A DNA stretch of 64,000 bases from Candidatus Poribacteria bacterium (GTDB lineage: Bacteria; Poribacteria; WGA-4E; WGA-3G): assembly GCA_965242965.1 (NCBI GenBank), contig OZ251518.1, positions 736,001-800,000 on the forward strand. Direction: 5' to 3'. Shown here one piece after another: positions 27,057 to 62,358 of the stretch. The position numbers and the translations under genes are program-made. The notes below the pieces were generated by a model, which searched no databases, was not told the origin of the DNA, and saw only the letters and a list, made by a program, of their open reading frames with translations. The first letter of the stretch is position 1, and each line of letters begins with the position of its first letter.

Positions 27057-27730
27057 TGTAGTTCGGGAGCGCCCGCTCCCGAACGGGTCAGGATCAGGCG
27101 ATCCTGAACTACAGGGGGGATGCGGTCTGCTGGCAAAACGATGGCGAGGGACAGGCCCTCGCCCTACGGTGTAGGGGCGGCGTTTTTTCCCGTAGCGCGG
27201 GGGCCTGTCCCCCGCGATGGTTCAAGAACCGTTTTTTATCGTAGCGCGGGGGCCTGTCCCCCGCGATCGTTGGAGTGCGCGGACGATGTCGAGACCAGGA
27301 GGTCTCTCCTATCGGGGACATCGTCAAGCGACGTTTTTCCCGTAGCGCGAGCGATGGCGAGGGACAGGCCCTCGCCCTACGGTGAAGGGGATGCGTTTTT
27401 TTATCGTAGCGCGGGGGCCTGTCCCCCGCGATTGTTGGAGTGCGCGTGCATGCAGCATGGCGAGGGACAGGCCCTCGCCCTACGTGAAAGGGCGGCGTTT
27501 TTTTCACCGTTACCAGAAGGCATCGGGCCCACTGTAGTTCGGGAGCACCTGCTCCCGAACGGGTCAGGATCAGGCGATCCTGAACTACAGAGGGGATGCG
27601 GTCTGCTGGCAAAACGATGGCGAGGGACAGGCCCTCGCCCTACGGTGAAGTACCGTTTTTTTCAAGAGAAAGAGCGACGTTTTTCCCGTAGCGCGAGCGA
27701 TGGCGAGGGACAGGCCCTCGCCCTACGGTG
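27057..27730. repeat. REP palindrome cluster
   Basis: Repeated ATGGCGAGGGACAGGCCCTCGCCCTAC and GTAGTTCGGGA...TCCCGAAC units. Confidence 0.9.
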
Positions 27731-37530: not shown

Positions 37531-40500
37531 ATGCCAACACTCAACATCAAACCCACACATAAAGCGATAACCGCCTATTACGCCGCCCTCGACAGGTATC
37601 GTCAACACGGCATTTCGCACGAAACCGCTGTCCGCGCCGCCTTTCAAGCACTCCTCGAAGTTGGCGCGCGACAATTGAATTGGACGCTCGTTTGTGAATA
37701 TACGCTAAACATCGGTAGGCGAGACCTCCCGGTCTCGATGCAATCGCGGGGGACAGGCCCCCGCGCTACGGTGCGTCCGGGAACGATTCGTCTTGACGGT
37801 GCCCTACTTGATGCCTACAGTCTCCCGCGCGGCACCTGGGAGGCAAAAGGCGTTCACGGAAACCTCCGCGCCGAAATCGAGAAGAAATTTGACGCGGGCT
37901 ATCCCCAGGACAACATCCTTTTCCAAACTCCCGAACGCGCGATTTTGTATCAAAACGGCCGCGAAGTAATGGACGCGGACATCACCGAACCGGCTCCCCT
38001 CGTCGCTGTCCTCAAGGCGTTCTTCGGCTATGAGCGCGCACACGCCGCCGAGTGGGAAGCCGCTGTCACCGCCTTCAGAGCCCTCGTCCCCGAACTGAAA
38101 CGGGAAGCCAAGGCACTCATTCAGACGCGCCACCGCGAGAGTGCGCGCTTCCGCAACGCCTTCGCCGACTTCCATCAACTCTGCCAAAACGCGATTCACC
38201 CCGCGCTCGCCGAATCCGCCGTGGAAGAGATGCTGCTCCAACACCTCTTGACAGAACGAACGTTTCGCACCGTCTTTGACAATCCTGACTTCGCACAGCG
38301 GAACATCATCGCACGCGAAATAGAGAAGGTTATCAACGCGCTCATTGAGAACGCATATAGCCGCGACGCATTCCTCGAAAACCTGAAGCCGTTCTATCGG
38401 GAAATCGAACGCGAAGCGGCAACTCTCGTCGATTTCTCGCAGAAACAGCATTTTCTGAATACCGTCTACGAACAGTTTTTTCAGGGAGATTCCGCCGACG
38501 TTGCCGATACGCACGGTATCGTTTATACACCGCAACCTATCGTCGATTTCATGGTGCAGAGCGTAAATCATCTCCTCAAAACCGAATTCGACAGGTCTCT
38601 TTCCGATGAAGGCGTTCACATCATCGATGCGTTTGTCGGCACCGGCAACTTCATCGTCCGCCTGATGCGCGAGATAGAACCCCTCAAACTCAACGCCAAA
38701 TACCGTTCAGAATTGTGGTGCAACGAAGTGCTGTTATTGCCCTACTACATCGCCAGTCTCAACATCGAACACGAATTTTACGAGGCCACCGGCGAATACC
38801 TCCCCTTTGAAGGCATTTCCCTCGTGGATACCTTCGATCTGGCGGAAGACCGGCAGTTGTCCCTTTTAACGCAGGAGAACACCGCTCGCGTCGAAAAGCA
38901 GAAGGCATCGCCGATGTTCGTCGTCATCGGCAATCCGCCTTACAACGTCGGGCAGGCGAATGAGCATGATCAGAATCAAAACCGAAAGTATGCGGCGTTG
39001 GATAAACTCATCCAAGAGACATACGCGAAGGATTCGTTAGCGACAAACAAAAAATCGCTCTACGATCTCTACGTGAAGGCACTCAAATGGGCATCCGAAC
39101 GCATCGGCGAGGAAGGCATCGTCGCGCTCGTCACGAACAACAGCTTCCTCGATGCAAAGGCATTTGACGGCATGCGCAAACATCTCGCCCAAGATTTCGA
39201 CCGGCTCTATATCGTCGACCTTGGCGGCAACGCGCGAAAAGACACCCTCGTCTCCGATGCCAGCGTCTTCGGCATCCAAGTCGGCGTGAGTATCAATTTC
39301 TTCGTCAAAGGGCCGTCCTCCACCGTAGCGCGGGGGCCTGTCCCCCGCGATCGTTCCGCAGAAGAACCGTCCTCCACCGTAGCGCGGGGGCCTGTCCCCC
39401 GCGATCGTTCCATCGACGATAACGCCCACATCTTCTACTTCCGCACCGACGACACCTGGAACAAAAACCAAAAATTCGACTTCCTCGCGCAAACCGAACA
39501 CATCGGCAACGTCCCCTGGCAAACGCTGCAACCCGACGCGCGACACACATGGCTCACCGAAGGACTCAACACCGAATTTTTGACCTTCATCCCGATGGGC
39601 ACCAAAACCGCCAGACGCGCCAAAGGCGACGTTGAAAATGTCATTTTCCAACTCTACAGCAACGGCGTGAACACCACTCGCGATGCATGGACTTGCAACT
39701 TTAACCGAAACACCCTCGCTGAAAACATGCAAGTGATGTATGATTTCTACAATTCGCAGTTGCGCGAATGGAACGGCACCGAAGACAAATCCGGGCTCAC
39801 GGTTGATGATTTTGTCACCTATGCCGATACGAAAATCAAATGGACAATGGATTTGAGGGCAAAGTTGAGGCGCGGGCGCGTCGCTGAATACGATGACAGC
39901 AAAATTCGGCACTCGCTTTACCGTCCCTTCACCAAAACGCATCTCTACTTTGACAGGCACTTCAATGACAGGGTGTATCGGTTCCCCTTTATTTTTCCGA
40001 CGCGAGAGACAGAAGCGGAAAATCGGGTGATTTGCGTGAGTCAATCCAATAGGCAAGATTTCGCGGTGCTAGCATCCAAATTCATCCCGAACAGTGCACT
40101 TTACATAGAGCCGCTGCAGGCTTTTCCCTTCTATGCCTACGATGAAGACGGCACGAACCGCCGAGAAAACATCACCGATTGGGCATTGCGAAACTTCCGC
40201 GCGCATTACGGCGACGATACCATCACCAAATGGGAGATTTTCCATTATACTTATGGGCTTCTGCATCATCCTGATTATCGCGAACGTTACGCCGCCGATC
40301 TCAAGCGCGACTTGCCGCACATCCCCTTCGTCAAGGATTTCTGGGCATTTGCGGATGCTGGCGCGCAACTTGCAGAACTCCACGTCAATTATGAATCGCA
40401 GCCGCAATATGAATTGACATCTATCACGAAGGAACGCGCGCTCGATTTGCGTGTGGAACGGATGAAGTTGTCGAAAGACAAGACATCGCTCATCTACAAC

Positions 40501-40743
40501 GATTCCCTCACTTTGGACGGCATTCCGCCAGAGGTTTTTGAGTATCGGTTGGGTAAACGTTCGGCATTAGAGTGGGTGCTGGATCAGTATCGGGTCAAGA
40601 CAGACGATCGAAGTCAAATCACCAACTCCCCGAACGATGCTGAGTCCCCGCAGGGAATTGTAGATCTCATCGGTTCGGTAATTACGGTAAGTTTGAAGAC
40701 GGTGGAGATTGTGTCGGGGTTGCCGCCCTTCCCGTTCCCGTAG
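37531..40743 (+). CDS. Single-chain restriction-modification enzyme: N6-adenine MTase with Type ISP (LlaBIII-like) C-terminal specificity domain, no helicase
   Basis: N-terminal DG...WEAK nuclease-like motif; GIVYTP, DAFVGTG (motif I), GNPPY (motif IV); YRPF.K..LYF and IFHY.YGLLH.PDYRERY..DLKRDLPHIP. Confidence 0.85.
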   Translation: MPTLNIKPTHKAITAYYAALDRYRQHGISHETAVRAAFQALLEVGARQLNWTLVCEYTLNIGRRDLPVSMQSRGTGPRATVRPGTIRLDGALLDAYSLPRGTWEAKGVHGNLRAEIEKKFDAGYPQDNILFQTPERAILYQNGREVMDADITEPAPLVAVLKAFFGYERAHAAEWEAAVTAFRALVPELKREAKALIQTRHRESARFRNAFADFHQLCQNAIHPALAESAVEEMLLQHLLTERTFRTVFDNPDFAQRNIIAREIEKVINALIENAYSRDAFLENLKPFYREIEREAATLVDFSQKQHFLNTVYEQFFQGDSADVADTHGIVYTPQPIVDFMVQSVNHLLKTEFDRSLSDEGVHIIDAFVGTGNFIVRLMREIEPLKLNAKYRSELWCNEVLLLPYYIASLNIEHEFYEATGEYLPFEGISLVDTFDLAEDRQLSLLTQENTARVEKQKASPMFVVIGNPPYNVGQANEHDQNQNRKYAALDKLIQETYAKDSLATNKKSLYDLYVKALKWASERIGEEGIVALVTNNSFLDAKAFDGMRKHLAQDFDRLYIVDLGGNARKDTLVSDASVFGIQVGVSINFFVKGPSSTVARGPVPRDRSAEEPSSTVARGPVPRDRSIDDNAHIFYFRTDDTWNKNQKFDFLAQTEHIGNVPWQTLQPDARHTWLTEGLNTEFLTFIPMGTKTARRAKGDVENVIFQLYSNGVNTTRDAWTCNFNRNTLAENMQVMYDFYNSQLREWNGTEDKSGLTVDDFVTYADTKIKWTMDLRAKLRRGRVAEYDDSKIRHSLYRPFTKTHLYFDRHFNDRVYRFPFIFPTRETEAENRVICVSQSNRQDFAVLASKFIPNSALYIEPLQAFPFYAYDEDGTNRRENITDWALRNFRAHYGDDTITKWEIFHYTYGLLHHPDYRERYAADLKRDLPHIPFVKDFWAFADAGAQLAELHVNYESQPQYELTSITKERALDLRVERMKLSKDKTSLIYNDSLTLDGIPPEVFEYRLGKRSALEWVLDQYRVKTDDRSQITNSPNDAESPQGIVDLIGSVITVSLKTVEIVSGLPPFPFP

Positions 40744-41112: not shown

Positions 41113-43014
41113 ATGCGAACCCCTGCCTCCGCCGAAAACATCACATGGCGCGCCATCCTCATCGGACTCCTGACGCTCCCACTCAATATCTACCTCGTCG
41201 TTCAGACAGAGACGGTGTGGACAACGCAGTATCCGACGACGATGGCGATTTTCTTTAACGCCGTCTTCACGCTATTTCTCGTCGCAATGCTCAACCTCCT
41301 ATTCACGCGTTACCTTCCGAAATGGCAGCTAACGCAGGCGGAGATGCTCACCGTTTACCTGATGGGGACACTGGCATGCGTCGTTTGTGGACATGACCTT
41401 TTGCAAGCAACGATGTGCGTTTTGGGACACGCAACGTGGTTCGCCACACCCGAAAACGAATGGCAATCCCTCTTCTTCCGATACATTCCCGATTGGATTG
41501 CGGTACTGGATAGGCGCGCCTTGACCGGTTATTATGAAGGCACCTCAACGCTGTTTGAGATTGAGCATGTCCGCGCGTGGTTGACACCCGTGTTATGCTG
41601 GACACTTTTCTTTTCCGCGCTTGCATTCTCGATGCTGATGCTCAACGTCATTCTGCGCAAGCAGTGGATCGAACATGAAAAACTGAGTTATCCTATCATC
41701 CTGCTCCCTTATGAGATGACGAAAAGCCCCAGTTTTTACCAGAATCGGCTCCTCTGGCTCGGCTTCGCCATCGGGTGCGGACTTGATTTACTCAACGGCA
41801 TCAGTTTCCTTTACCCTTACGTGCCGAGCATTCCTATTCGCCACGACATCGGGAGGCTCTTCACGGAGAAACCGCTGAGTGCGATAGGTTCAACGCCTAT
41901 CCATCTTAACCCTTACGCGATCGGTATCGGGTTTTTGATGCCCTTGGATCTTTCGCTTTCTTGTTGGCTGTTCTATCTTTTTTGGAAGGCGCAGCTTGTC
42001 TTCGGCGCGATGTCCGGGATGAATCAAACCCCCGGCTATCCGCATATTGACATGCAGTCGCTCGGCGCGTATTTCGGGCTCTGTTTCTTCGCGCTTTGGA
42101 TAACGCACAAGCATTTGTGGCAGGTCTTCCGTAATATTCTGGGCATTAAAAGCCGTGTAGATCCTTCAAATGAACCGATGGGGTATCGCGCCGCGTTCAT
42201 CGGGTTTCTCGTCAGCATCGCAATTGTGTTTGGATTTTGCTTGCGCGCGGGGATGTCGTGGTGGGGTGTGCTTGGATTTTTCAGCGTCCACTTTATCCTC
42301 GTGTTAGCGTTCACGCGGATGCGCGCCGAGCTCGGGACACCTACGCAGGATTTCTATCGGGCGGGTCCCGGGTTTTTCCTCACCTCACTTGTTGGTTCAA
42401 GAAAGATTGGCGCGCCGACGCTCACCGGCTTCGCTTTCCTCTACGGCTTCACGCGCAACTACCGTTCGCAACCGATGCCGAATCAATTGGAAGGGTTTAA
42501 ATTGGCGGACCGGGGTGGCATCAACGCGCGTCAACTTTTGTGGGTGATGTGGGGCGCGACGGTCATCGGGCTGCTCATCGGGTTCACGGCGTTCTTGCAT
42601 GCAGGCTACAAGCACGGCAGTTTAGGCACGTGGCGCGGACAAGAAGCGTTCAGCGATTTACAGCGATGGCTCACCTTCCCAAGCGATACGGATTGGCGGC
42701 ACCTCGGCTTCTTCGGCTTTGGAATATCGCTGACCTTAGGCACGCTTTTCATGCGGTTGCGGTTTATCTGGTGGCAACTGCATCCGCTTGCGTATCCCCT
42801 TGCAGGAAATTGGAACTTTGGTCGGCTTTGGTTTCCGGTGTTTCTTGCTTGGGCGATCAAATCTATTCTGATTCGGCACGGCGGTCTGGGTGCGTATCGC
42901 CGGGCGTTGCCGTTCTTCTTGGGCACCATGCTCGGCGAATTTGTGATGGGCAGTCTCTGGGCGATCTTGGGGTTGTTTTTGGAGCAGCGGATGTATTCGT
43001 TCAAGCATTGGTGA
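41113..43014 (+). CDS. Polytopic membrane protein (DUF6785/DUF6784-like putative transporter)
   Basis: ITWRAILIG, WFATPENEW, RKQW.E.EKLSYP, RMRAELG, WWQLHPLAY, PFFLG motifs; paralog at 55626. Confidence 0.75.
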   Translation: MRTPASAENITWRAILIGLLTLPLNIYLVVQTETVWTTQYPTTMAIFFNAVFTLFLVAMLNLLFTRYLPKWQLTQAEMLTVYLMGTLACVVCGHDLLQATMCVLGHATWFATPENEWQSLFFRYIPDWIAVLDRRALTGYYEGTSTLFEIEHVRAWLTPVLCWTLFFSALAFSMLMLNVILRKQWIEHEKLSYPIILLPYEMTKSPSFYQNRLLWLGFAIGCGLDLLNGISFLYPYVPSIPIRHDIGRLFTEKPLSAIGSTPIHLNPYAIGIGFLMPLDLSLSCWLFYLFWKAQLVFGAMSGMNQTPGYPHIDMQSLGAYFGLCFFALWITHKHLWQVFRNILGIKSRVDPSNEPMGYRAAFIGFLVSIAIVFGFCLRAGMSWWGVLGFFSVHFILVLAFTRMRAELGTPTQDFYRAGPGFFLTSLVGSRKIGAPTLTGFAFLYGFTRNYRSQPMPNQLEGFKLADRGGINARQLLWVMWGATVIGLLIGFTAFLHAGYKHGSLGTWRGQEAFSDLQRWLTFPSDTDWRHLGFFGFGISLTLGTLFMRLRFIWWQLHPLAYPLAGNWNFGRLWFPVFLAWAIKSILIRHGGLGAYRRALPFFLGTMLGEFVMGSLWAILGLFLEQRMYSFKHW

Positions 43015-46011: not shown

Positions 46012-46036
46012 TTTGAGGTATTCCTTAAATTGTTGC

Positions 46037-46443
46037 CTGGCGAGGGACAGGTTTCCTGCGCCCTACGGTGAAACCGCCATGTTACCGTAGCGCGGGGGCC
46101 TGTCCCCCGCGAGTTTTCAGTAGACCGAAGCATGGCGAGGGACAGGCCCTCGCCCTACGGTATATCGGGCCTGTCCCCCGCGATTGACGAGAAAACCGCC
46201 ATGTTACCGTAGCGCGGGGGCCTGTCCCCCGCGATCTTTCAGTGGACCGAAGCCTGGCGAGGGACAGGCCCTCGCCCTACGGTATATCGGGCCTGTCCCC
46301 CGCGCGTGACAAGAAAACCGCCGCGTTACCGTAGCGCGGGGGCCTGTCCCCCGCGATCGTTGGCCTGGCGAGGGACAGGCCCTCGCCCTACGGTATATCG
46401 GATGCCCTTCGGCATGGCGAGGGACAGGCCCTCGCCCTACGGT
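46037..46443. repeat. REP cluster
   Basis: Alternating GTAGCGCGGGGGCCTGTCCCCCGCG and inverse GTAGGGCGAGG units. Confidence 0.9.
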
Positions 46444-46486
46444 ATGTCGGGGGCATTCTCGACATGCCAGACGATGCCCGCGCAAA

Positions 46487-49400
46487 TTACTCATTCCGGA
46501 TGGTAAGAAGACTCGTTTCCTGTTCGGCAGAGAGACGCACGCCTCGGATCATATTCAACGAGACACCTGCGAACCGCTTCAACATCCGTTCCTGCTGCAT
46601 GTTCGCCAACTCTGTCAGACTCCCATCCGTCCGGAACAAGTGATACGGTTCAAGCACCGCTATCACCTCGGCAGTTTTCTCAGCGGCGATCGGATCGTTC
46701 GCGCAATCGCGTCTATCGCAAATTTCGCCGAGGGCGTAAATGCCGTTCCGTTTGACATCCTTATGCACATCGCCGCGCAGCTGATCTATGAGGATGTGGA
46801 TAACCGGGTCGAGTTGCGTGATAGGTAACGGCTGTTCATGCTCCCGACTCCCCATCTTCCCGAACGCCCAGTTGATGGCAATCCGGTCTGCCGCTACGCC
46901 ATACTCGATCAGTTGCTTCAAGTGCTCAAGCGCGTTCACGCTGTGGCAGCACTTGCCGATGGAATAAACGGCGTTCGGACGGACGGCTACGGGGGTATCC
47001 CGCGTAATCAGGTTAATCAGGTGCGATTCGGCGATGGGGAGCCCCGTTTTCCCGATTGCTTCCACCGCATACCGGACCACCGTTTTGATAACCTGCGGGT
47101 GCTTGTGCCCGAGTTCATCCGGGTTGCTCAGCGCAATACCGGCATCGCAAATGTCATAAAGGAGATCCGTGTCCGACGTTTTGGATGCCAAGTCACCGAG
47201 AAGCACCATCACCCGCGCCTTCCCGTAGTTGTTCACATAGGGGATATTTTCGAGGAGCGGACCGATGAACTCCTCGGCGTTCGTGGCGTGGGCGATTTTT
47301 TGACGCTGCCGGATAACCTGATCCATAATCGTCTTCTTGCGGTTCATCTGATACGTGCGCATGTAATGGGAGAAGTTTTTCTTCATCTCCGCGATTTCAT
47401 ACTGCACATCAAGCGTGGCACCCTCGCTCGGGGCACCGGGCCGGAATGAAGACGCGCCTGCTCTCGGACGAGTGCTCACTACACTGGGAGAGCGCGGTGG
47501 GGACGTGGACAGAGACGGAGACCTGGGCGCGGACATGGAACCGCGCTCGGTAGGCGTGTAAGCAGGGGGCCTGAAACTCGGCTGCTGAACGTTGCTTGCT
47601 TCAACCGCCGGACGGCTTCTCTCCACAGGTTCTTGTTCTTGTTCTTCCCCGGCAGAGCGGGTTGAATCAACGCTGACCGCGAACCGCTCATTAGGATTCG
47701 CCCTGGGCCAGCCTTCAACATTCATGATGCCGCGTTCGTCCACCTGCACTTGGAGGTAGATAGGCTCATTTTTCAGGAGTGGCCGCCGAAACCGCACGTT
47801 CCGCTCAAGGATACGGCGATTCGGGGGTTTCGTATCGTGCCGGCTGCCGAGGTAAAACGGAAGCCGCAAGGAAGGTGCCCCATCGCTGACTTGCAAGCCT
47901 TCGATAGGCTGTGGTTCCGACAACGGCAGAATCGTCCCTGCTTCCACGAGAGGTTTGACTCTCCCCCCGGCGATTTCAATGCCGATAGTGTCGTTGAGGA
48001 TGCGTGCAGGCTTGATGCCCCTGTGCAAGTCATAGTGATACACAACGGCACCGCGCGCGACAGCTTTGTCCGCGTCACCTGCGGTAATAGGTGGGAAGCC
48101 GAAGAACGTCTCCAACCGTTTTTGGATGGGATGGAGTTTCGTCATCCCGCCGTTGAGGAGGACAGCATCTACCTGCGGCATCGTTCCGAGTTTCCGTTCC
48201 GCTTTTCTTAAGACATCGAGGATAGGATAGATGATGTTATCACAGGCGGGCAGCGAGTCCAGTTGCGCGACAGAATCCAGCGTGAGTTGATTCGCGAGGA
48301 GCGGTTCAACGATGTCTTCGTATTCAGACAGCGTCAAATCGTATTGAAACACCTGATTTTCAAACGGCGTTTGCATCACCATCGTCTCAACTGTTTCCGC
48401 ATCAAAGTGCCTCATTAACTTGCTCGTCTCAATCTCGCTGCTCAGATCGATTTTGGCTTGTTCAGCGTATTCGCGGAAGTTACTCTTGAGCAGGTTCATT
48501 TGGAACTCATCCAAGTTATTGGGGAGCCTGTTCTCGTAAGCCGCGAAGAAATGGTCGGCGAGTTTCTGGTCGAAGTCATCTCCACCAATTTGCGTATACC
48601 GTGAGACAGCCAGGTCTTCGATGTTCAGGCGGAATTCGCTGTGTTCATAAGAGACTCTGTGTAAAGAGACATCTAATGTGCCGCCGCCCAGGTCAAACAC
48701 GAGGATGAGTTTCGGTATGTGGAAATTGATGAGGGTTTCCGGAATTTCCCCTTTGTCCTGTCTATTGATGAAATCGTAGAGCGCGGCGCGCGGTTCATCA
48801 AGCAAAATGTTGCGTGGGGTTCCATCGTCTTCGTGCGTTCGGAATCCGGCGAGTCGCGCGGCTTCAACCGTAGCTGCCCGCATATCAGAGTCAAAGGAGG
48901 CAGGGACGGTGATGACAACATCTTGGGGCATGAAGCCGAACAACGTCTTGGCACTCGCGGCGAGATGTGTGAGAATCTGCGATGAGATATCCGCTGCGCT
49001 ATAAGTGTTATTATCAAACTCATACTGCTTCGGTGTGCCCATTTCGCTTTTAACAGATTTCACTACCCGGCTCGTCTGCCGTCCTATCATCGTCTTTGCG
49101 TATTCGCCGACAATCGGCGGGCTGCTTTCTTTGAAATAGACGCACGAGGGTAACAACTCCTTTTTGCCCATGCCGCCCCGCTCAATCATCATGTTAATCT
49201 CCACGACTTTGGGCTCTAACTTGTTTGTCTGTGGATTGAGCGTTCCCCATCCCATGACAGAATTGGTTGTGCCTAAATCAATGCCGATGTAATAGTTCGG
49301 ATGCGCGGGTTCAGTCGGCGCGCTCGGCGCACTTGGTGCACTTGAGGCAATCGTTGGCACCGTAGCACGAGGCCCTGTTCCGCGCGAACCTTGCGGTAAA

Positions 49401-50155
49401 ATCGCCCTCGGCCCCGTCGGACGGTTAAAGGCAGGTGCCTGCATCTGTGACGTTTCTGACGTTGACGTATCCTGCGGTTGTGCAGTAGGAGGAGGTGCCT
49501 CGCGCGGTGTTACAGCCGCGTGTGGCTGAATTGTCTCTGGCGTGTCAGCAGGTGCCGCTTCAAGGTTCAAACTTGCCAGCACTTCGTGAAATTGCTCGTC
49601 GCTGATTTCCTGAACACTGCGTCTCCATGCCAATTTGATAGGGAATTCACCGGTATGCTCCCAGTTGACTTCAATAAATCGCGGACGCACGTGAGGATAG
49701 ATTACATCAGCAATAGGCAGTGATGTGCCGAGTCGCGTTATCGCCTGCGTCCAGTCGTAATAAGCGGTTTTGGTAACGGTGCCGATGCCGAGAATCTTGC
49801 TTAATCCGTGCCGTGCGATAACCTTGTCCCCTACCTGAATTTCGCGATGGAATTCCCAAACGATCTTCGCTGCCCGCGGTCCCCAGTCAAGTTGACATTC
49901 TTCGTTAAAATCGTCAAAGTGCGTCTGGAAATCTTCAAACGTCTCGTAGGTGTCTAAATGCCCTAACTGTTCACTCGGTGACACCTGTCCTCGGACTGCA
50001 GGCGGGATGCCTGCAGGCGAGATGACGGTGCCGTGTTGCGTATGGACTGCCCACCCTACGGCGATTGTTCCATGTTCTCTGTCGTGCTGCCAAGCATTCT
50101 GGAACAACTCGTCCGGTATCGTGGATTCCATAGGTGCGATAACCCAATACTTCAT
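46487..50155 (-). CDS. Atypical Hsp70-family protein: N-terminal McrB/Mrr-type (EVE/PUA-like) domain, Hsp70 ATPase, C-terminal HEAT-like repeats
   Basis: GIDLGTTNS, VITVPASF, DEPRAA, FDLGGGTLDVS, GGDDFD, NGGMTK, AVARGA. N-terminus YWVIAP...IAVGW...WEF..EIQVGDKVIA.....ILGIGTV...YYD...VNW. Repeated A..A(I/L)G(K/E) helices at the C-terminus. Confidence 0.9.
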   Translation of the reverse strand: MKYWVIAPMESTIPDELFQNAWQHDREHGTIAVGWAVHTQHGTVISPAGIPPAVRGQVSPSEQLGHLDTYETFEDFQTHFDDFNEECQLDWGPRAAKIVWEFHREIQVGDKVIARHGLSKILGIGTVTKTAYYDWTQAITRLGTSLPIADVIYPHVRPRFIEVNWEHTGEFPIKLAWRRSVQEISDEQFHEVLASLNLEAAPADTPETIQPHAAVTPREAPPPTAQPQDTSTSETSQMQAPAFNRPTGPRAILPQGSRGTGPRATVPTIASSAPSAPSAPTEPAHPNYYIGIDLGTTNSVMGWGTLNPQTNKLEPKVVEINMMIERGGMGKKELLPSCVYFKESSPPIVGEYAKTMIGRQTSRVVKSVKSEMGTPKQYEFDNNTYSAADISSQILTHLAASAKTLFGFMPQDVVITVPASFDSDMRAATVEAARLAGFRTHEDDGTPRNILLDEPRAALYDFINRQDKGEIPETLINFHIPKLILVFDLGGGTLDVSLHRVSYEHSEFRLNIEDLAVSRYTQIGGDDFDQKLADHFFAAYENRLPNNLDEFQMNLLKSNFREYAEQAKIDLSSEIETSKLMRHFDAETVETMVMQTPFENQVFQYDLTLSEYEDIVEPLLANQLTLDSVAQLDSLPACDNIIYPILDVLRKAERKLGTMPQVDAVLLNGGMTKLHPIQKRLETFFGFPPITAGDADKAVARGAVVYHYDLHRGIKPARILNDTIGIEIAGGRVKPLVEAGTILPLSEPQPIEGLQVSDGAPSLRLPFYLGSRHDTKPPNRRILERNVRFRRPLLKNEPIYLQVQVDERGIMNVEGWPRANPNERFAVSVDSTRSAGEEQEQEPVERSRPAVEASNVQQPSFRPPAYTPTERGSMSAPRSPSLSTSPPRSPSVVSTRPRAGASSFRPGAPSEGATLDVQYEIAEMKKNFSHYMRTYQMNRKKTIMDQVIRQRQKIAHATNAEEFIGPLLENIPYVNNYGKARVMVLLGDLASKTSDTDLLYDICDAGIALSNPDELGHKHPQVIKTVVRYAVEAIGKTGLPIAESHLINLITRDTPVAVRPNAVYSIGKCCHSVNALEHLKQLIEYGVAADRIAINWAFGKMGSREHEQPLPITQLDPVIHILIDQLRGDVHKDVKRNGIYALGEICDRRDCANDPIAAEKTAEVIAVLEPYHLFRTDGSLTELANMQQERMLKRFAGVSLNMIRGVRLSAEQETSLLTIRNE

Positions 50156-51408
50156 GAGAGAACCTCCTGAACTTTTGGTTTGTTAATAACGATAGGCTCA
50201 CTCTCATCGTCGAGGAGCGCGCCTTCGTAAATCCAACCGGCGGAGATTACCTCCACCGTCTTCGTTTCCCCCGGGTCTTCCCAGTCCGAACCGATGTAGT
50301 CGTATGCATCGGATTCGCTGAGGGTTATCTCTATTTTGGACCCGACGGCCGCTTGCGGGCGAACGCCTTGCGTCTTGAGGAAACGGGTAAACATGCGAAT
50401 GGTAATGGGAATGAGTTCAAGTTCCTGCGGAACCTCTATCTCGCTTTTCCTTAAACCCTTGGCGAGTTCCTCCGCCTTGAGAAACTGGTCTAACAGGTTG
50501 CTGTGCTTCCCTGAGTTCATCTCGTGGAAGAAGGCGACGGTTGCCTCGTGTTTCGCTTCCTCACGGACGCGCACCAGTTCTTCGTTGACAGCTTCGAGCT
50601 GCTGCAGCGCGCTTTCCGCGGAGGCGCGCAAGTCGGCGTTTTCGAGGAGTGCTTCTTCAGCCGCTATCATATTTTCGTCTTCAATGAGGTCAAACGGGAT
50701 GTCGTCCTCAGGCGGAGAAGGCGAGGTACTTGGGGCGGCGCGTGATTCGGTGCGCGGCGCACTCTCACGCTGCGTCAAGGATTTGAGGAGCCCCTGTGCG
50801 TCGGTGTCGCCGAGGGCGCGCTCTTGTGCGGACTTTTTAGGCCGGAGTCCGCGCTCTATCGCGACGAGTTCGACGAGTTCATCCAAGAGTGTCTTAGACT
50901 GCTTAAAGTTCGCCAATCTCGCGGTATCGTGAAGGATGCCTTTATAGCCCACTGAGTCGGGGAGTTCGATATAAAAGGCATAGAGAATCGCCTTGGGTTC
51001 AATCGGCCGCGTATCCTGCGGTGAGAGGTGCGCGTATTCCTCTAACGGGTATGCGGCGAGGTAATTTTTCGCCTGCGCATACAATGCCCCGTAGTCGCTG
51101 TCGCCCGGGTCACCGGTTACGAATTCGGAGAGGCATTCGCCGATTTCGCCAATCTGTATCGCCCACGAAACGCGTTTCCTGGGCCCGAGATGATACTTGT
51201 CCAGTTCGTCTACGACGCGAAAAGGCAGGCGGCTCACACCCATGTCCTTTTTGAGTCGCGAGACGAGTTCGTTGGGACGGCTTTCGGGTGAATGTAATAC
51301 GGCGCGCGCCAAGTAGTAGGCGTTGAGTTGCCGCTCAACGAGGTATTTCTCTTGACTTCTACCCTTATGCCGATATTTCTTTATCAGCTCGCTGATTTTC
51401 AATTCCAC
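50152..51408 (-). CDS. Protein with coiled coil and C-terminal GrpE-like domain
   Basis: FLKTQGVRP...VG...VEVISAGW.YEG...INKPKV resembles the GrpE beta domain; ATGA overlap with the Hsp70 gene. Confidence 0.65.
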   Translation of the reverse strand: MELKISELIKKYRHKGRSQEKYLVERQLNAYYLARAVLHSPESRPNELVSRLKKDMGVSRLPFRVVDELDKYHLGPRKRVSWAIQIGEIGECLSEFVTGDPGDSDYGALYAQAKNYLAAYPLEEYAHLSPQDTRPIEPKAILYAFYIELPDSVGYKGILHDTARLANFKQSKTLLDELVELVAIERGLRPKKSAQERALGDTDAQGLLKSLTQRESAPRTESRAAPSTSPSPPEDDIPFDLIEDENMIAAEEALLENADLRASAESALQQLEAVNEELVRVREEAKHEATVAFFHEMNSGKHSNLLDQFLKAEELAKGLRKSEIEVPQELELIPITIRMFTRFLKTQGVRPQAAVGSKIEITLSESDAYDYIGSDWEDPGETKTVEVISAGWIYEGALLDDESEPIVINKPKVQEVLS

Positions 51409-51557: not shown

Positions 51558-52928
51558 CTAGAAATAGATAGGTGTGCCGTTGGTGGCTTGATACACCTCT
51601 ATATCCTTGCCGAACCTTCGGAAGGTTTCGCTATAAACGTTCACCAGAGTTCGCTGTTGCGGGTATCCGTGAACGAAAACGACTTTCTTGGGATAGACTT
51701 TCTCAATAAGCGAAAGTATCCCCTCGCTGTCCGTGTGCGCGGAGAGGCGGTATGTGTCGACATTAGCGTGGACAGGGACGCTTCTGTCATTAAGTCTGAA
51801 CCGTTCTCCTTTGCTCCGATATAACCGTTCTAGTCGCCGCCCGGGGCTTTCTTCGTCAAGGTAGCCGCTAAAGAAAATGGCATTCCTTGCATCGGGAAGC
51901 AATTTTTCGGCATAGCGTGCCGAGGCACTTTTATCAAGTAACATGCCGGAGCTGGCGATGAGAACACCGTTGAAGGTGTCAAGGTTGTCGATGAGTCCCC
52001 GCGGTGCTTTACCTACCTGATACCCGAAAACCCGCACGCCGTTATTTTGATAAATCTCACAAGCGTTTTGAGCGAGTCCATCAATGTAAATGGTAAACGG
52101 TGCCAATCGCCCAGTGTGTATGAGATGCTGCAAGATGAGGGCGAGCTCTTGGCTTCTGCCTATCGCAAACGCGGGGATAAGCACACTGCCCCTGTTATTA
52201 AGGCATCGCTCGATTTTCCGCGCGAAAATTTCGCGTTCTTCAACGACTTTTCCGGCGTAAGCACCCTCCTGATACCCGTATGTTGATTCAGCAATGAGTA
52301 AGTCAACTTCCAAATTGTCTGGAATCTGATACTTGGGCACAGTCATCTGGTCAAACGGTGTAAAGTCGCCGCTGAACAGAATATTGCCGGCATCGGACTG
52401 CACGTAAATCATGCTTGCGCCGAGGATGTGCCCTGCCGGATAGAACGTGACTTGCACAGGGGGGTATAACGCGCTTCCCTGATGTTCTAGCAGAAAAGGG
52501 TTATTCCATTCAACGCATTGGATGTTTTCTAGTGCGTGTTCGACCCGAGTTGCGTTGAATTGCTGCACCTCTCGAAAATCCTGCAAAGTTGCATCAGGCG
52601 GCGCGTCGCCCCCGGCTTGGCTCAGTTGCATCTCCATGATATCGTGCGTCGCCTGCGTCGCGTAAATCGGAACATCCGGTGCCTCGGCGACGACAGTAGG
52701 AAGTGAACCAACGTGGTCCAAGTGTCCGTGAGAGAGTAGGATGCTTTCCAGCTCCCACAAGCCGTCAAGTAGGTTTTGGGCATAAAGCGAATCGAAGCGA
52801 GGAAACGTAGAATCAGCATGCAAGCGAATGCCGGAATCCAAGAGCAGTTTCGTGTCGTTTAACCGAATAAAATAGCAGCTTGCACCGATTTCATTTCCGC
52901 CTCCGATTGGGTAAAAGAGGTTCTTCGT
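51558..52928 (-). CDS. MBL-fold beta-CASP nuclease (CPSF73/YSH1-like), probable ACG start
   Basis: PIGGGNEIGASCY..LLDSG, SHGHLDH, AGHILGA, SGDF, ESTYG, PAFAIGRSQE, SSGML, SAHTD, VHG. Conserved N-terminus extends upstream of the ORF-track TTG at 52841. Confidence 0.9.
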   Translation of the reverse strand, partial: TKNLFYPIGGGNEIGASCYFIRLNDTKLLLDSGIRLHADSTFPRFDSLYAQNLLDGLWELESILLSHGHLDHVGSLPTVVAEAPDVPIYATQATHDIMEMQLSQAGGDAPPDATLQDFREVQQFNATRVEHALENIQCVEWNNPFLLEHQGSALYPPVQVTFYPAGHILGASMIYVQSDAGNILFSGDFTPFDQMTVPKYQIPDNLEVDLLIAESTYGYQEGAYAGKVVEEREIFARKIERCLNNRGSVLIPAFAIGRSQELALILQHLIHTGRLAPFTIYIDGLAQNACEIYQNNGVRVFGYQVGKAPRGLIDNLDTFNGVLIASSGMLLDKSASARYAEKLLPDARNAIFFSGYLDEESPGRRLERLYRSKGERFRLNDRSVPVHANVDTYRLSAHTDSEGILSLIEKVYPKKVVFVHGYPQQRTLVNVYSETFRRFGKDIEVYQATNGTPIYF

Positions 52929-53027: not shown

Positions 53028-53037
53028 CATGTTATTT

Positions 53038-53257
53038 AAGGATGTTTCATAACTCGTTGGCGCGCCCTCCTGGGGCGCGGCAGAAAGCCCGTTTCATCGT
53101 AGGGCGAGGGCCTGTCCCTCGCCATTGTCCGCGCAATCTGACGCTCGCGGGGGACAGGCCCCCGCGCTACGAAAAAAAACGGCACTTCACCGTAGGGCGA
53201 GGGCCTGTCCCTCGCCATCGTCATCCTACCGAACACTTTGAAATATAAAACACCCTC
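53038..53257. mobile_element. MITE-like TIR-bounded REP cassette
   Basis: AAGGATGTTTCATA ... TATAAAACACCCTC. Confidence 0.55.
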
Positions 53258-55576: not shown

Positions 55577-55625
55577 AATTTTACGTGAACTTATTCTCTT
55601 CTTTTTTTCTTCTTTGACGAGGCTT

Positions 55626-57569
55626 ATGCAAAACAACACTGAGCTCCACGCGCAACATCCACAATCTCAAAAGCGTCACCCCGGTGTCACCTTTCGCGCC
55701 ATTCTCCTCGGGGTGCTCCTGATACCGCCGAACACCTATTTTATCATGGCAAACCATCTCCGTTATTGGAGCACTTTGCCGACTACCATGTCGCTGATTT
55801 ACAATGTGGTAGTGACGTTAACGGTGTTGACATGCCTCAATTTCCTGCTCAGATGGTTGCTGCCGCGGTTTGCCCTCCGGCAGGGCGAATTGCTCACTAT
55901 CTATGTTATTTTGTCCCTTTCGTCGGCGATTGCGGGGCACGACATGATGCAGACTGTCGTGCCCGTTATTCCGAACGGCTTCTGGTTCGCTACGCCTGAA
56001 AACGAATGGCAGCAACTCTTCTGGCGATACCTCCCCAATTGGATGACGCTCAGCGAGCTCTCCGTCTTGCAAGACTTTTACGATGGCGATACCACCTTTT
56101 ACACGAAAAGGTATCTGTCGGCGTGGTGGGAACCGATTTTATGGTGGACTATTTTTCTCTCAGTGCTGATGTGGGTGATGGTTTGCATCGATTTGCTCCT
56201 GCGCAAACAGTGGATTGAACGGGAACGGTTGACATACCCTATTGTCCGCCTGCCGATAGAGATGACGCACTCGGATGGGCGGCTCTTCAAAAACAAAATG
56301 TTGTGGATAGGGTTCGCGATTGCCGGCAGCATCGATTTGATTAACGGCATCCACGCCTTCTTTCCCGCGTTTCCCGAAATCCCGGTGCGCAAGGCAGACT
56401 TGGGTATCTATTTCACCGAAAAACCGTGGGATGCGATGGGGTGGACACCTGTCTATATCCTCTCATTCGGCGTGGGATTGGCATTCTTGATGCCGCTGGA
56501 GATGTCGTTTTCGTTGTGGTTTTTTTATCTCTTCTGGAAAGGCGAGCGTATCCTCGGTAGAGCGATGGGCTTACAAGTTTTGCCGGGGTTTCCTTACGAT
56601 GGGCCACAGGGAGTCGGCGCGTATCTCGCCATCGCCTGTTTTGGGCTTTATGGGGGCAGGAAGCATTTCTATGCCATGTTCAAAAGCCTCATCGGCAAAA
56701 AACAGCAAAATCTCTCGCCGGAGATGCAAGATACAACCGACTACCGGTGGCCGGTGGCAGGGTTAATCGGCGGCGTGCTTTTCCTCTTCATTTTCTCGCA
56801 TCAGGGCGGCATGGCAGTTTGGATGATAGCCCTCTATTTCGGCATCTATTATCTGCTTGCGCTCGGCATCACGCGCGTGCGCGCCGAAGTCGGCCCGCCA
56901 ACACATGAGATGTTTGTTGCGAACCCGCGGCAATTCATCATCGACTCGCTCGGCTCGCGTCCGATTCCGCCGCCGAGTTTGACGATGATGTCGCTCTATT
57001 TTGCGTTCAATCGCGGGTATCGCGCGCATCCGATGCCCCATACTTTAGAAGGCTTCAAACTGGTTGAGGTCGCGAATATGCGCGCCGGACGCATGGTAAT
57101 AGCGATGATGTGCGCCATCTTTTTCGGTATCCTCGCCTCGTTTTGGGCGTATCTCGTTGTCTCCTATAACATCGGCGCGAATCCGGGATTAGGCAGCGGC
57201 GGCTACAACATGCTCCGTTCGTGGCTCTATTATCCTACCGAGACAAATATCCCTGCCGTTACTTTCATGGGTGTCGGCTTTCTGTTTACCGGATTGCTTT
57301 GGTGGCTGCGCACCCGTTTCCCGATGTTCCCGTTTCATCCCACCGGCTATGCCGTTGCGAGTAGTATATGGACGTTCGGCTGGCTTTGGTTCTCTGTGCT
57401 TATCAGTTGGGCGATTAAGAACATCATTTTACGCTTTGGCGGCATCCGCTTGTATCATCGGGTGTTACCCCTTTTCTTGGGGTTGATTCTAGGACAATTT
57501 ATTGTCGGCGGCGGCTGGGTGCTGATTCGGTTAATTTGGGGTGTCTCGGTTTATTCGTTTTATCGATGA
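55626..57569 (+). CDS. Polytopic membrane protein (DUF6785/DUF6784-like), paralog of 41113-43014
   Basis: VTFRAILLG, WFATPENEW, RKQWIERERLTYP, RVRAEVG, PFHPTGY. Start may instead be the TTG at 55614. Confidence 0.75.
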   Translation: MQNNTELHAQHPQSQKRHPGVTFRAILLGVLLIPPNTYFIMANHLRYWSTLPTTMSLIYNVVVTLTVLTCLNFLLRWLLPRFALRQGELLTIYVILSLSSAIAGHDMMQTVVPVIPNGFWFATPENEWQQLFWRYLPNWMTLSELSVLQDFYDGDTTFYTKRYLSAWWEPILWWTIFLSVLMWVMVCIDLLLRKQWIERERLTYPIVRLPIEMTHSDGRLFKNKMLWIGFAIAGSIDLINGIHAFFPAFPEIPVRKADLGIYFTEKPWDAMGWTPVYILSFGVGLAFLMPLEMSFSLWFFYLFWKGERILGRAMGLQVLPGFPYDGPQGVGAYLAIACFGLYGGRKHFYAMFKSLIGKKQQNLSPEMQDTTDYRWPVAGLIGGVLFLFIFSHQGGMAVWMIALYFGIYYLLALGITRVRAEVGPPTHEMFVANPRQFIIDSLGSRPIPPPSLTMMSLYFAFNRGYRAHPMPHTLEGFKLVEVANMRAGRMVIAMMCAIFFGILASFWAYLVVSYNIGANPGLGSGGYNMLRSWLYYPTETNIPAVTFMGVGFLFTGLLWWLRTRFPMFPFHPTGYAVASSIWTFGWLWFSVLISWAIKNIILRFGGIRLYHRVLPLFLGLILGQFIVGGGWVLIRLIWGVSVYSFYR

Positions 57570-59417: not shown

Positions 59418-62358
59418 CTATAGCACGACGCGAGACTTCTTTGCGCCGTGAATACTCGGCTCGGCGCACAGACGTTCACGCAACAGACGCAGCCCTTCAT
59501 GCACCTCCGGATGCGTATCTTCGCCGAAACCGAGCACTTCCGCTAACAGCCGCCGATCCAACTTCTGGCGCACCGCGTCCTCGTCCATCTGATGAAACCG
59601 CAGCATCACTTCATCTTTCATCGCCTCAAAGATGTTCTTGGCGTTTTCCAGCGCGGTTTGGTCTAGTTCGCGGACATCTAGGGTTGGCATTGAGCGAAAA
59701 GCTGTCAGCCGAATCCACCCGCGCCCAGTCTGCCGTTTCGCAGCGTGCACCCAATAGCATAGCAAACCCAGTGTTGAATTGCCCCACAGCGTCCAGACAT
59801 AATCATACAACGGGTTGTCAAATGTGACACTGGGCAGCAGATTGACACCGAGTGTCGGCTGCTCCGTGAAAAGAACAGCTAAGGAATTCGTGTTGAAGTG
59901 TAAGGCTACGTTGTGGTGCACCCGGCTCCTTTTGTCTAAGATTTCCTGGGCCCTGTCCCAAGAACCGGAACGAATAATACCGTGGCAGTCTGGGGCGACT
60001 TCCATGGTTCGTTGGTTCTCGGATTTGACATGCCATAGGCCAGGATATAAGTCTTCGTCGGATGCCCCTTCTTCTATATCAAAGGGGCCCCTTGAATTCC
60101 TGCGATGATCATAGGAATGGATTGTCGCAATTTTCCCCGCTAAAGTCATCGGAATTTCAACTTTATCCCGCTGAGTGGGCAACCAGAGATGTCCATCCAT
60201 GAGCCGGTAGGCACTTTGGAGTAGCGAAAAATTCCTCATACGCGATGCCGCCCAAACTTCTCGTAGTGGGCAATTTAAAGCGGAGCCGCTTTCTGCATCG
60301 CCGACTTTGATGAGATTTCCCCCTATCGGCGCATCTTCAAAACGTCTGACATTTTCAAGCCGCTGGATGCTTTTCGCTATCTCCATACCTTCTAGGTAAC
60401 TCCCAGGTCTTCGGTGTAGACAGGCAAATGTGCCGCGGCCCGTGTTTTCCGCTGCGCCTTTGGTAGCTACGACGAGACATTCTCCCATATTCGTATCGGC
60501 GGAGAAGGCACAGTTTGCAATGTCTGCAGCCGCGATGGTAATAACCAACACATCGTGATATTCCTGAGACAGCAGTTCTCGCACTTGCTGCCATAGAGGA
60601 GAAGTCAAGGCGATGATAGGAAGCACAAATCCCATAACCCCACCCGGCTTTAGCATCCTATCCGCTAAGTCAACGAAGTAGGAACCGAGGCCGGCATTGG
60701 TATTCCCGATGGAACTAATTTCTCCAAGGCCTCTTTGCATCTCCTCAGCGACATCCGGCTCTCTATCCCCAAATACTGTTGTAGGAACATCAGGCGCGCG
60801 GGAACTATTATCTGCTCCGACGCGCGTAAACGGCGGATTATCCACAACAATATCCATCTCGCCGTGCCGAAATTCCGGGATTTCATCGGTATCACCGGTG
60901 CCATCCCCCTGCACCCTCTCCGTATTGATTAAGCCCAACGGCAAAGTCGCTTGCGGATTTTCCAGCAAATCCAACGCGCCTAACGCATACTGCCCATCCG
61001 AACGTTGCGAACCGTATGCCATCGTGTGAATGCGCGTTTTTCCAATCTTGATGTCGGGGTTAGCACTCGCAATAATGGCGGCTGTCAGATGACTCGCATT
61101 CGGCATAATGTCGCACCCGACGAGATTATTTTCTACCATGTGCCGATGGATGTCGCGTCCATTGCCACCTGCCTGTTCGTGCTGTGCCAAGATGCGTTGG
61201 TAAACGCCATTCAGCAACGCGCCTGTCCCGCAGGCGAAGTCTGCCACCTTAATGTCGGATAAGCGCGACACGCCGTGACTCGCCGACCCCCCCCTTCTTA
61301 ACGCGCGTTAATTGATTAGTGGGGGTTGCCAGATGGCGTTGGACGACAAGCGTGGAGAGCAACGCCACCGATTCCGGGCGCGTGTAGTAAGTCTTGATAA
61401 ACTTCCTATCCACAATTAGCCGTTGGAAGACAATGCCTGCCAATTCGTGGACTTGCGCTAAGCCTCTATCCACCAATTTTTGCGCGGTGTTCCGCAGCAG
61501 ATACAACACTCTACCGACGAGGCTATCGTCTGTCGCTAAGGCGAGGATGAGTTCATACGCGACATCGAAGATGGGACGGTAGTTCACTTTGCGAATGGTG
61601 TCCCATGCGACAAGGATGTCATCGGAGTTGAGTCGTTCTTCCACTGTCCGAAGTTGTCGGAGGGAAGGCACACGTTCCATTTCGGCGGTGCCGGCGAGTG
61701 TGCTTTGAAAGACAAAAGCGTTCGTGATAATCAGCATCGCCATCCGATACGTTTGTTCGCCTGCTTCTTGGTAGAGGATGCGCTGCACATTTTCGGCGAG
61801 GCCGGGGCGCGTCGCCGCAGCGGCGGCGAGGAGTGTGGCGGCTTCGTTCACGCCGTGCTCTAAATCGTAAGCGGCTTGGGCAACTCTGGCGTTCGGAATA
61901 GCACCGATGCGGATGGCTGTCGCGACATCGGTGAGCCCGCCTTTTGCCCAGCCTATCTTTGGAAAACGGTGGACATTCGCGTGTTCATCATCAAGGCTGA
62001 GGAGCACATAATGGAGTGCATCGGTTTGGCGGAGGCGCGCTTCCAATTCGCGATGCGATGTGAGCCGCAGTTCATGCGGCAAGCGCAACGCCATCGCGGT
62101 TGTCACCTGTTCATAAGAGGAGAGTTGTCTGCCCAAATGCGCCCGTGCCTGTGGTTCGCCGCTGAGGTTGTCGGCGTTCGGTTCGTCAATCTTCACCTCA
62201 ATGACGACAGGGTTTCTGCCGTCCTCTTTGACGGTAATATCCGGTCGTTGGCTTTCGCGCAGGAAGGTCTGCGTATCCTGCGGTTCTACATTCCATGCGC
62301 TGTGCATCTGTTCAAGGATGTCCACCAGTTTGCTGGTGATGGTATCTTCGTGTCGCAT
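59418..62358 (-). pseudogene. Type IIG-like restriction-modification/N6-MTase gene, frameshifted at a G8 tract (ORFs 61249-62358 and 59418-61271)
   Basis: Upstream ORF has a PD-(D/E)xK motif (RPDI...IEVK) and YYTRP; downstream ORF has DFACGTG and DNPPF. Deleting one G at 61287-61294 fuses them without stops. Confidence 0.8.

Follow-up and report, generated by a model that had tools for sequence, protein, structure and literature searches.

Hsp70s are viewed as protein chaperones. In restriction-like systems, they have so far been proposed only via comparative genomics, in the form of CnuD, and with ATPase sites that are apparently crippled. CnuD is a component of the Type III CoCoNuT systems. 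In the excerpts of the CoCoNuT paper used here, it is described as an Hsp70-like nucleotide-binding domain (NBD) and substrate-binding domain (SBD) followed by HEAT-like repeats; it is linked or fused to CnuB/McrB and CnuC, and its motifs are degenerate and Walker A-like, with probably poor ATPase activity (Bell et al. 2024, eLife, PMC11090510). The other near system is McrBC, a Type IV restriction system in which McrB carries N-terminal reader domains (archaeal structures 6p0g and 6n0s). Here, we describe a gene found in a 64,000-nucleotide (nt) stretch of DNA from a Candidatus Poribacteria bacterium, a sponge symbiont (contig OZ251518.1, positions 736,001 to 800,000; hereafter the window). 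The gene encodes a protein of 1222 amino acids (aa) in which an N-terminal domain of the Pfam family DUF8426, called the head below, is fused to an Hsp70 and a HEAT-like repeat domain. It forms a cassette of ~6.7 kb with a beta-CASP nuclease gene and a gene for a GrpE-like protein, P0002, between DUF402 and DegT genes, as seen in Table 1. The gene looks like part of an unusual chaperone-driven module for nucleic-acid surveillance or defence.

The head of the protein is homologous to the McrB reader domains, but an Hsp70 takes the place of the AAA+ GTPase as the NTPase, a beta-CASP protein from a separate gene takes that of McrC as the nuclease, and a GrpE-like factor is present. With CnuD, going by its described architecture, the protein shares the Hsp70 NBD and SBD, the HEAT-like repeats and a predicted restriction or RNA-targeting context. 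The cassette differs from this precedent, as far as the excerpts describe it, in its intact, canonical ATPase motifs, the putative PUA-like reader fused at the N-terminus, the GrpE-like neighbour gene and the beta-CASP nuclease alongside. In the same excerpts, CnuD is defined by its CnuB/McrB GTPase and CnuC (DUF2357) partners, and neither was found in the cassette or in the scanned neighbouring open reading frames (ORFs). No AAA_5 or McrC-type domain was found there (ORFs of at least 150 aa at 36-64 kb and at least 200 aa at 20-37 kb), and no McrB or McrC relative was noticed in related loci, which were screened with the window proteins alone. Because it has no McrB or McrC partner, the protein is not a CnuD in the defining sense. 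It is also neither a DnaK nor a member of PDC-S02, a PADLOC candidate family.

An Hsp70 with HEAT repeats in a Type IV restriction context was, therefore, already known as CnuD. We found no description of the reader fusion or of the GrpE-like and beta-CASP partners. In the literature searched, we found no Hsp70 that combines a fused PUA-like reader, a GrpE-like factor of its own and a beta-CASP partner, though the supplements of PMC11090510 and PMC7641849 may list such fusions, and nothing was found in print on DUF8426. Only the CoCoNuT paper and its preprint proved relevant. The main text of the EVE census (PMC7641849) does not contain 'DnaK', 'chaperone' or 'HEAT', and the titles and opening lines of abstracts on PDC-S02 say nothing of its head domain. 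The first-pass annotation of the window had called the fusion to an Hsp70 unexpected. The fusion is real, but a link between Hsp70 and restriction is less unexpected, since the excerpts of PMC11090510 already place the Hsp70-HEAT protein CnuD in Type IV contexts. The cassette provides a compact three-protein system for a direct test of an Hsp70 ATPase cycle coupled to nucleic-acid recognition.

Table 1. Features of the cassette and its flanks, with positions in the window
Feature	Position	Strand	Basis or remark
Beta-CASP metallo-beta-lactamase-fold nuclease, 427 aa, HGHLDH motif	51558..52841	-	First cassette gene; Pfam
P0002, 418 aa	50152..51408	-	Adjoins the Hsp70 gene upstream; fold prediction
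DUF8426 (PF28530) domain, aa 1-195	49571..50155	-	PUA-like EVE/YTH-type fold (predicted); putative modified-base reader
Linker 1, aa 196-285	49301..49570	-	Composition and orthologue alignment
Hsp70 NBD and beta substrate-binding domain, ~aa 286-825	47681..49300	-	PF00012, DnaK alignment, invariant columns
Linker 2, aa 826-912, Ser/Pro/Arg/Ala-rich	47420..47680	-	Composition
C-terminal HEAT-like helical repeat domain, aa 913-1222, and stop codon	46487..47419	-	HEAT_2 match
REP-like palindromic repeat cluster	46018..46467	.	Intergenic, between cassette and DegT; not cassette-specific
REP-like repeat cluster	53087..53232	.	Between beta-CASP gene and DUF402

The gene is a single ORF without interruption on the minus strand, running from 50155 to 46487. 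Positions 49570-50155 are its 5' end and translate to residues 1-195, with all the motifs quoted in the first-pass annotation present. Pro, Ala, Ser and Thr make up 60% of linker 1, compared to 22-25% of the folded parts, and the length and sequence of this linker differ between orthologues (alignment columns 250-400). Pfam HSP70 (PF00012) matched aa 290-845 with E 2.7e-45 over profile positions 2-512 of 599, which correspond to the NBD and the beta substrate-binding domain. The ORF, the linker composition and this match bear out the earlier proposal that residues 1-195 are a distinct module joined to an Hsp70 via a Pro/Ala/Ser-rich linker. The HEAT_2 match (aa 1026-1091, E 1.7e-4) is below the Pfam cut-off; HEAT_2 was also seen in relatives, and the HEAT-like domain is highly conserved, for example at GKCC and EICDRR. 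As a separate observation, the linker 1 coding sequence contains, at 49356-49392, a copy of the repeat unit that flanks the cassette (65% identity), and the linker peptide GSRGTGPRA looks like translated units of this repeat. One idea is that linker 1 was derived from a former intergenic repeat, but the match may be due to chance.

A phmmer search of 1.84 billion representative proteins with the 195-aa head gave 203 matches at E<=1e-3, and 48 of these reach E<=1e-10. Many of the homologues are standalone proteins of ~150-220 aa that align well with the query. The near-invariant positions are W4, P8, W22, I31, G34, W35, F102, D110, A114, G117, G125 and W165, and the query keeps the aromatic and acidic positions of the family (W4, P8, W22, W35, F102, D110 and W165). 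It also bears an extra lineage-specific insertion at ~aa 37-62 that is absent from the standalone homologues. P0004, which is 99% identical to the query, and other long relatives carry precomputed PF28530.1 (Pfam 38.1), and 29 of 30 Atlas matches were DUF8426 clusters (top score 0.95); the DUF8426 assignment comes from this annotation of relatives and these clusters, not from a direct hidden Markov model score. Pfam EVE (PF01878; cut-off 23 bits) matched aa 81-193 of the isolated head at 24.6 bits (E 2.8e-5) and the whole 1222-aa protein at 19.8 bits, under the cut-off. Since only 2 of 42 DUF8426 members reach EVE at E<=0.01, the head belongs to a separate family with a faint EVE signal. Positions 31-106 of the 334 in the PADLOC PDC-S02 profile matched aa 62-136 (E 2.5e-7).

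The head was modelled with AlphaFold (AF2) from a 42-row alignment, with a predicted local distance difference test score (pLDDT) of 85.8 and a predicted template modelling score of 0.82. The model is poorly predicted solely in the insertion, at 39-56. In a search of 48,161 PDB chains that was independent of Foldseek, the predicted fold superposed on solved EVE/YTH domains. By title, the matches included YTH domains, EVE proteins (VcaM4I, and THYN1 with 5-methylcytosine DNA) and ASCH. Among the others were a chain of DrmAB and several structural-genomics proteins, the latter classed as EVE/PUA-like. Sequence searches of the PDB chains with the single sequence and with a profile gave only chance-level matches, such as JBP3 (E 1.5) and Pelota (E 0.41). 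By its modelled fold, the head is a PUA-like EVE/YTH-type domain. The fold search and the EVE score of the isolated domain, therefore, agree with the PUA/EVE-like assignment made in the first-pass annotation. The uncharacterised family DUF8426 is, in this way, given a predicted fold and a likely function, that of a PUA-like modified-base reader.

Next, the partners of the head were examined in 44 homologues scanned with Pfam, out of 150 listed among the 203 matches; these were the top and mainly longer homologues, not a random sample. Downstream of the head, AAA_5 (McrB-like) was found in 8 of the 44, NucS_C/YhcG PD-(D/E)xK in 4, HNH in 3, HSDR_N in 2 and GmrSD_N with HNH in 1. Nuclease-type partners thus total 10/44, and McrB-like GTPases or nucleases together 18/44. 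Five had an Hsp70 downstream, nine had no other domain, and the remaining 12 had assorted partners: CBS (2), kinase (1), TPR/Sel1 (2), beta-helix (1), HTH-type (2), a second canonical EVE (1), a truncated P-loop (2) and a low-complexity oddity (1). One homologue with AAA_5, P0130, matched the NCBIfam McrB model NF008457 at 1.3e-53. The earlier suggestion that this module stands ahead of McrB GTPases is supported by these counts. As for its extension to Mrr nucleases, no Mrr_cat fusion was seen in the 44 of 203 homologues scanned. P0131 and P0151, in which the reader is joined to PD-(D/E)xK, are full-length matches to PDC-S02. These data show that the head shares homology with the modules found at the N-terminus of McrB-like GTPases and modification-dependent-type nucleases. 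DUF8426 heads many such GTPases and restriction-type nucleases, PDC-S02 included, and this family context suggests that the head may bind modified bases. In PDC-S02 and the EVE-HNH enzyme VcaM4I, one polypeptide holds the reader and, joined straight to it, the nuclease, whereas the cassette puts an ATPase and a putative exchange factor between sensing and cutting. The window protein has no full-length match to PDC-S02, and the nuclease half is absent from it. A further relative, P0095 (1373 aa, from a metagenome), carries a RAMP-superfamily domain (PF03787, E 6.3e-11, aa 8-207) ahead of DUF8426 (aa 262-445), Hsp70 and HEAT, and this may point to a connection with machinery that binds RNA or is guided by it.

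The Hsp70 part has canonical ATPase motifs that align with those of the genome's own DnaK (IGIDLGTTNS, DEPRAA, FDLGGGTLDVS, GGDDFD and NGGMTK), and the beta domain aligns too. The motif columns are invariant or nearly so across 14 fused relatives. K369 lies in such a column and is probably the counterpart of DnaK K70. The protein shares with the DnaK-GrpE system the Hsp70 NBD, the beta SBD and the conserved catalytic motifs, and P0002 contributes a predicted long helix, helical bundle and beta domain. It differs in scoring far below the NCBIfam equivalog cut-offs (DnaK, 148.7 bits against 648; HscA, 122.1 against 708), in having linker 2 and the HEAT-like domain in place of the helical lid, and in having no J-domain protein in the cassette. 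The J-domain search was made with Pfam on the three cassette proteins, and no search for a dedicated J-domain protein encoded elsewhere in the genome was made. The family is present in one copy in the genome, which also encodes a normal DnaK and other Hsp70 paralogues. One of these paralogues, encoded by a 928-aa ORF (L004, G000:C1), is an atypical Hsp70 that has an Ig-like domain at its N-terminus and matches SrfB weakly.

The P0002 and Hsp70 genes are translationally coupled. The TGA stop codon of P0002 overlaps the ATG of the Hsp70 gene (ATGA), and AGGAGG lies 9-10 nt upstream. P0002 has 85 detectable relatives, and all those with source names are from Poribacteria. In its AlphaFold model (pLDDT 73.7), the N-terminal domain (aa 1-185) is helical and is followed by a disordered segment, a helix of 59 residues, two further helices and a small beta domain. 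The C-terminal half (aa ~237-418, window 50155-50700) has a GrpE-like fold in the model, with the long helix, helical bundle and C-terminal beta domain that characterise GrpE. Foldseek ranked GrpE chains first for this model, but at E>=0.03. P0002 matched no Pfam, NCBIfam or PADLOC family, and Pfam GrpE (PF01025) gave nothing at E<=1. A genome-wide search with PF01025 found two other GrpE genes and not P0002, and hhalign of P0002 with these two GrpEs was negative (E 0.32 and 0.14). P0002 is, therefore, not recognisable as GrpE from its sequence, and it differs from GrpE in having an extra 185-aa helical domain. We consider P0002 to be GrpE-like with moderate confidence. A complex prediction for the Hsp70 NBD (aa 283-712) and P0002 (aa 237-418) gave scores of 0.20 and 0.19 against a mark of 0.32, without controls, and weighs neither for nor against binding. 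The genome's second GrpE is divergent (47.9 bits; L023, G000:C1:327160-327894) and lies directly upstream of another Hsp70 paralogue. The genome, therefore, has at least three GrpE-type/Hsp70 gene pairs.

The product of the first cassette gene contains both a metallo-beta-lactamase domain with the HxHxDH motif (HGHLDH in the translation) and a beta-CASP domain, the two features of the beta-CASP class. The Pfam matches were Beta-Casp (1e-12), Lactamase_B_2 (5.6e-9) and RMMBL (2.6e-8). The three domains are shared with aCPSF1/RNase J and with Cas14 of the type VII CRISPR-Cas systems. The top NCBIfam matches were aCPSF1 (7.4e-49; 166.5 bits against a cut-off of 580) and Cas14 (1.1e-44; 152.8 against 800), both far below the curated cut-offs. 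No CRISPR array and no Cas7 or Cas5 gene was seen in the cassette, and the RAMP domain occurs only in the distant relative P0095.

The order beta-CASP, P0002-like, Hsp70-HEAT was kept in all seven related loci and in all four further loci with enough flanking sequence. Among 61 sampled relative genomes, the Hsp70-HEAT gene was found in 8, and beta-CASP orthologues (at least 68% identity) were found in exactly those 8; the other beta-CASP matches were paralogues with 33-38% identity. In genomes without the cassette, the gap between the DUF402 and DegT genes is 41-182 nt (5/5 genomes). Across the phylum, the Hsp70-HEAT family was present in 16 of 176 genomes, all within one bacterial family. This clean presence/absence pattern marks an accessory cassette whose genes are gained or lost together. 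Sponge metagenome runs also contain this DNA (four runs of one study, with 55-59% of sampled words), and no RNA run with the cassette was among those listed. A motif search of named genomes with GIDLGTTNS and VLLNG[GS]MTK recovered ordinary DnaK genes (80 loci, 26-32% identity) and was uninformative.

The history of the fusion was followed with a quick maximum-likelihood tree of the Hsp70-HEAT part. Sixty proteins were chosen from 120 listed, and 59 were used because P0110 lacked the motif needed for trimming. A head profile built from standalone homologues, with the query domain included, matched every long Hsp70-HEAT relative (26 of 26) but not a single short one (0 of 33). Short Hsp70-HEAT relatives also occur outside Poribacteria, for example P0121 of the Melioribacteraceae. 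On the tree, head presence requires at least two changes. The head-bearing P0014 is basal to the query clade and to a clade of nine head-less proteins, which suggests that the head was lost secondarily in the latter. A second clade of 18 proteins, ~40-46% identical to the query, is fused throughout, so the fusion persists across paralogues that are only ~40% identical. In loci of this second clade (L147, G119, 9085-16466; L117, G115), three tandem genes of 413-439 aa with an Hsp70 NBD only lie upstream of the DUF8426-Hsp70-HEAT gene. These loci had no beta-CASP or P0002 relative and may represent a distinct system.

We propose that the cassette could be a modification-sensing, Hsp70-driven, restriction-like module made up of a sensor, a switch and an effector, in keeping with the logic of McrBC and the CoCoNuT (CnuD) systems. 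We put the chances that this is correct at about even. The head would bind a modified base of DNA or RNA, flipped into a predicted pocket lined by the conserved aromatics W4, W22, W35, F102 and W165. Base binding would be coupled to the Hsp70 ATP/ADP cycle, and the GrpE-like partner would reset this cycle through nucleotide exchange. The HEAT domain, the SBD or both would hold or release the beta-CASP nuclease, which would then cut the marked nucleic acid. Such a cassette would be a Type IV-restriction-like or RNA-surveillance module with an Hsp70 in place of the McrB AAA+ GTPase as the nucleotide-driven switch. A more far-reaching version is possible rather than probable: that the cassette represents an unrecognised class of modification-dependent restriction or defence, in which the Hsp70 cycle replaces McrB, with a cryptic GrpE-type exchange factor, a DUF8426 sensor and a beta-CASP executor, and with the second clade and its three NBD-only Hsp70 paralogues as a sister system. 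Several observations weigh against a sensor-switch-effector module. Head-less orthologues work in another genus (three of the seven related loci, plus the nine-row short clade), so the core cassette, whatever its role, can do without the head. Conservation of W35 does not extend to the second fused subclade, and the GrpE assignment of P0002 is by fold only. Neither the beta-CASP protein nor P0002 is covered by a PADLOC model, and Pfam found no McrB, McrC, methyltransferase or other classical partner in the cassette. The sampled genomes are also kin with a syntenic locus; their counts overstate independence, and part of the co-occurrence reflects shared descent.

Another possible explanation, which we find somewhat unlikely, is that the cassette is an accessory module of RNA metabolism or ribosome-associated quality control and does not serve defence. 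The head would read a modification on the cell's own ribosomal, transfer or messenger RNA, the Hsp70 would remodel a ribonucleoprotein, and the beta-CASP protein would be a processing or decay nuclease of the RNase J/aCPSF1 type. This would fit a nuclease whose top scores are to a ribonuclease (aCPSF1) and an RNA-cleaving protein (Cas14) and which has the RMMBL 'RNA specificity' domain. It would also fit a vertically syntenic locus among housekeeping genes that shows none of the hallmarks of a mobile element, as the repeats on its flanks are REP-like and genome-wide. In the excerpts of their paper, Bell et al. (PMC11090510) argue that the Hsp70-like domains of CoCoNuT bind RNA or ribosomes. 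However, the cassette is present in few genomes of the phylum (16/176) and close relatives lack it without a trace, a pattern better suited to an accessory or conflict role, and most sequence homologues of the head are joined to GTPases and DNases of the restriction type. The head could also be a reused PUA-like fold that binds a protein or small ligand or oligomerises, and through which a specialised Hsp70 would receive its clients or regulators, with the nuclease loosely linked or unlinked. A common fold is no proof of a common ligand, CBS, kinase, TPR or Sel1 domains take the place of a nuclease in some homologues, the head was lost in one clade while the cassette stayed, and W35 is near-invariant in standalone DUF8426 proteins and varies in the second fused subclade. 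We think this improbable, given that W4, P8, W22, W35, F102, D110 and W165 are intact in the query, that an McrB-like GTPase or a nuclease is the fusion partner in 18 of the 44 homologues scanned, and that the beta-CASP gene fully co-occurs with the Hsp70 gene and always lies in the same row of adjacent genes.

It is hardly credible that the fusion itself is an annotation or assembly artefact, in which a sequencing error within the linker merged two separate genes. The linker is of low complexity and variable, and one relative (L150, G160, ~8406-11062) has its Hsp70-HEAT orthologue split into two frames of 515 and 424 aa; this copy may be frameshifted or decaying. The window ORF is uninterrupted, however, and the same fused frame, 1116-1278 aa long, was found in six other genomes and in 25 further database proteins with the domain. 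The presence of the fusion in four other genomes of the same bacterial family argues directly against an assembly artefact. Of 112 genomes in that family, 7 have DUF8426, in every case as part of an Hsp70-HEAT ORF and never as a separate gene.

Finally, the surroundings of the cassette were examined. Inverted repeats flank it (85-nt arms, 46086-46170 and 53087-53171) and were considered as the ends of a mobile element. This was rejected because the repeat unit is a palindrome resembling a repetitive extragenic palindrome (REP). Its core, GGCGAGGGACAGGCCCTCGCCCTACGG, has 55 copies in the window (at most 3 mismatches), where chance would give none, and 2160 in the genome (at most 2 mismatches), mostly in intergenic clusters. 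Example sites are 46134-46160, 53190-53216 and 27143-27169. Reading through this element gives rise to the small ORFs found on both strands at 53036-53248. A scan of 44-54 kb for promoters and terminators gave counts that were not above those of shuffled sequences (8 against 6.8+/-2.6 and 13 against 11.9+/-3.8).

Full Type ISP enzymes have a nuclease-helicase N-terminal half in addition to their other domains. A 1070-aa ORF at 37531-40743 has the Type ISP coupler, N6-methylase/Eco57I and Type_ISP_C (E 1.5e-101) without this half, and a weak Eco57I-like ORF lies at 59418-61271. Two paralogous DUF6785+DUF6784 proteins of 633 and 651 aa (41113-43014 and 55614-57569) flank the region. The first part of the window (1-19671) is taken up by a giant ORF of at least 6556 aa that is open at the 5' end of the window and lies in a region of strong positive AT and GC skew.

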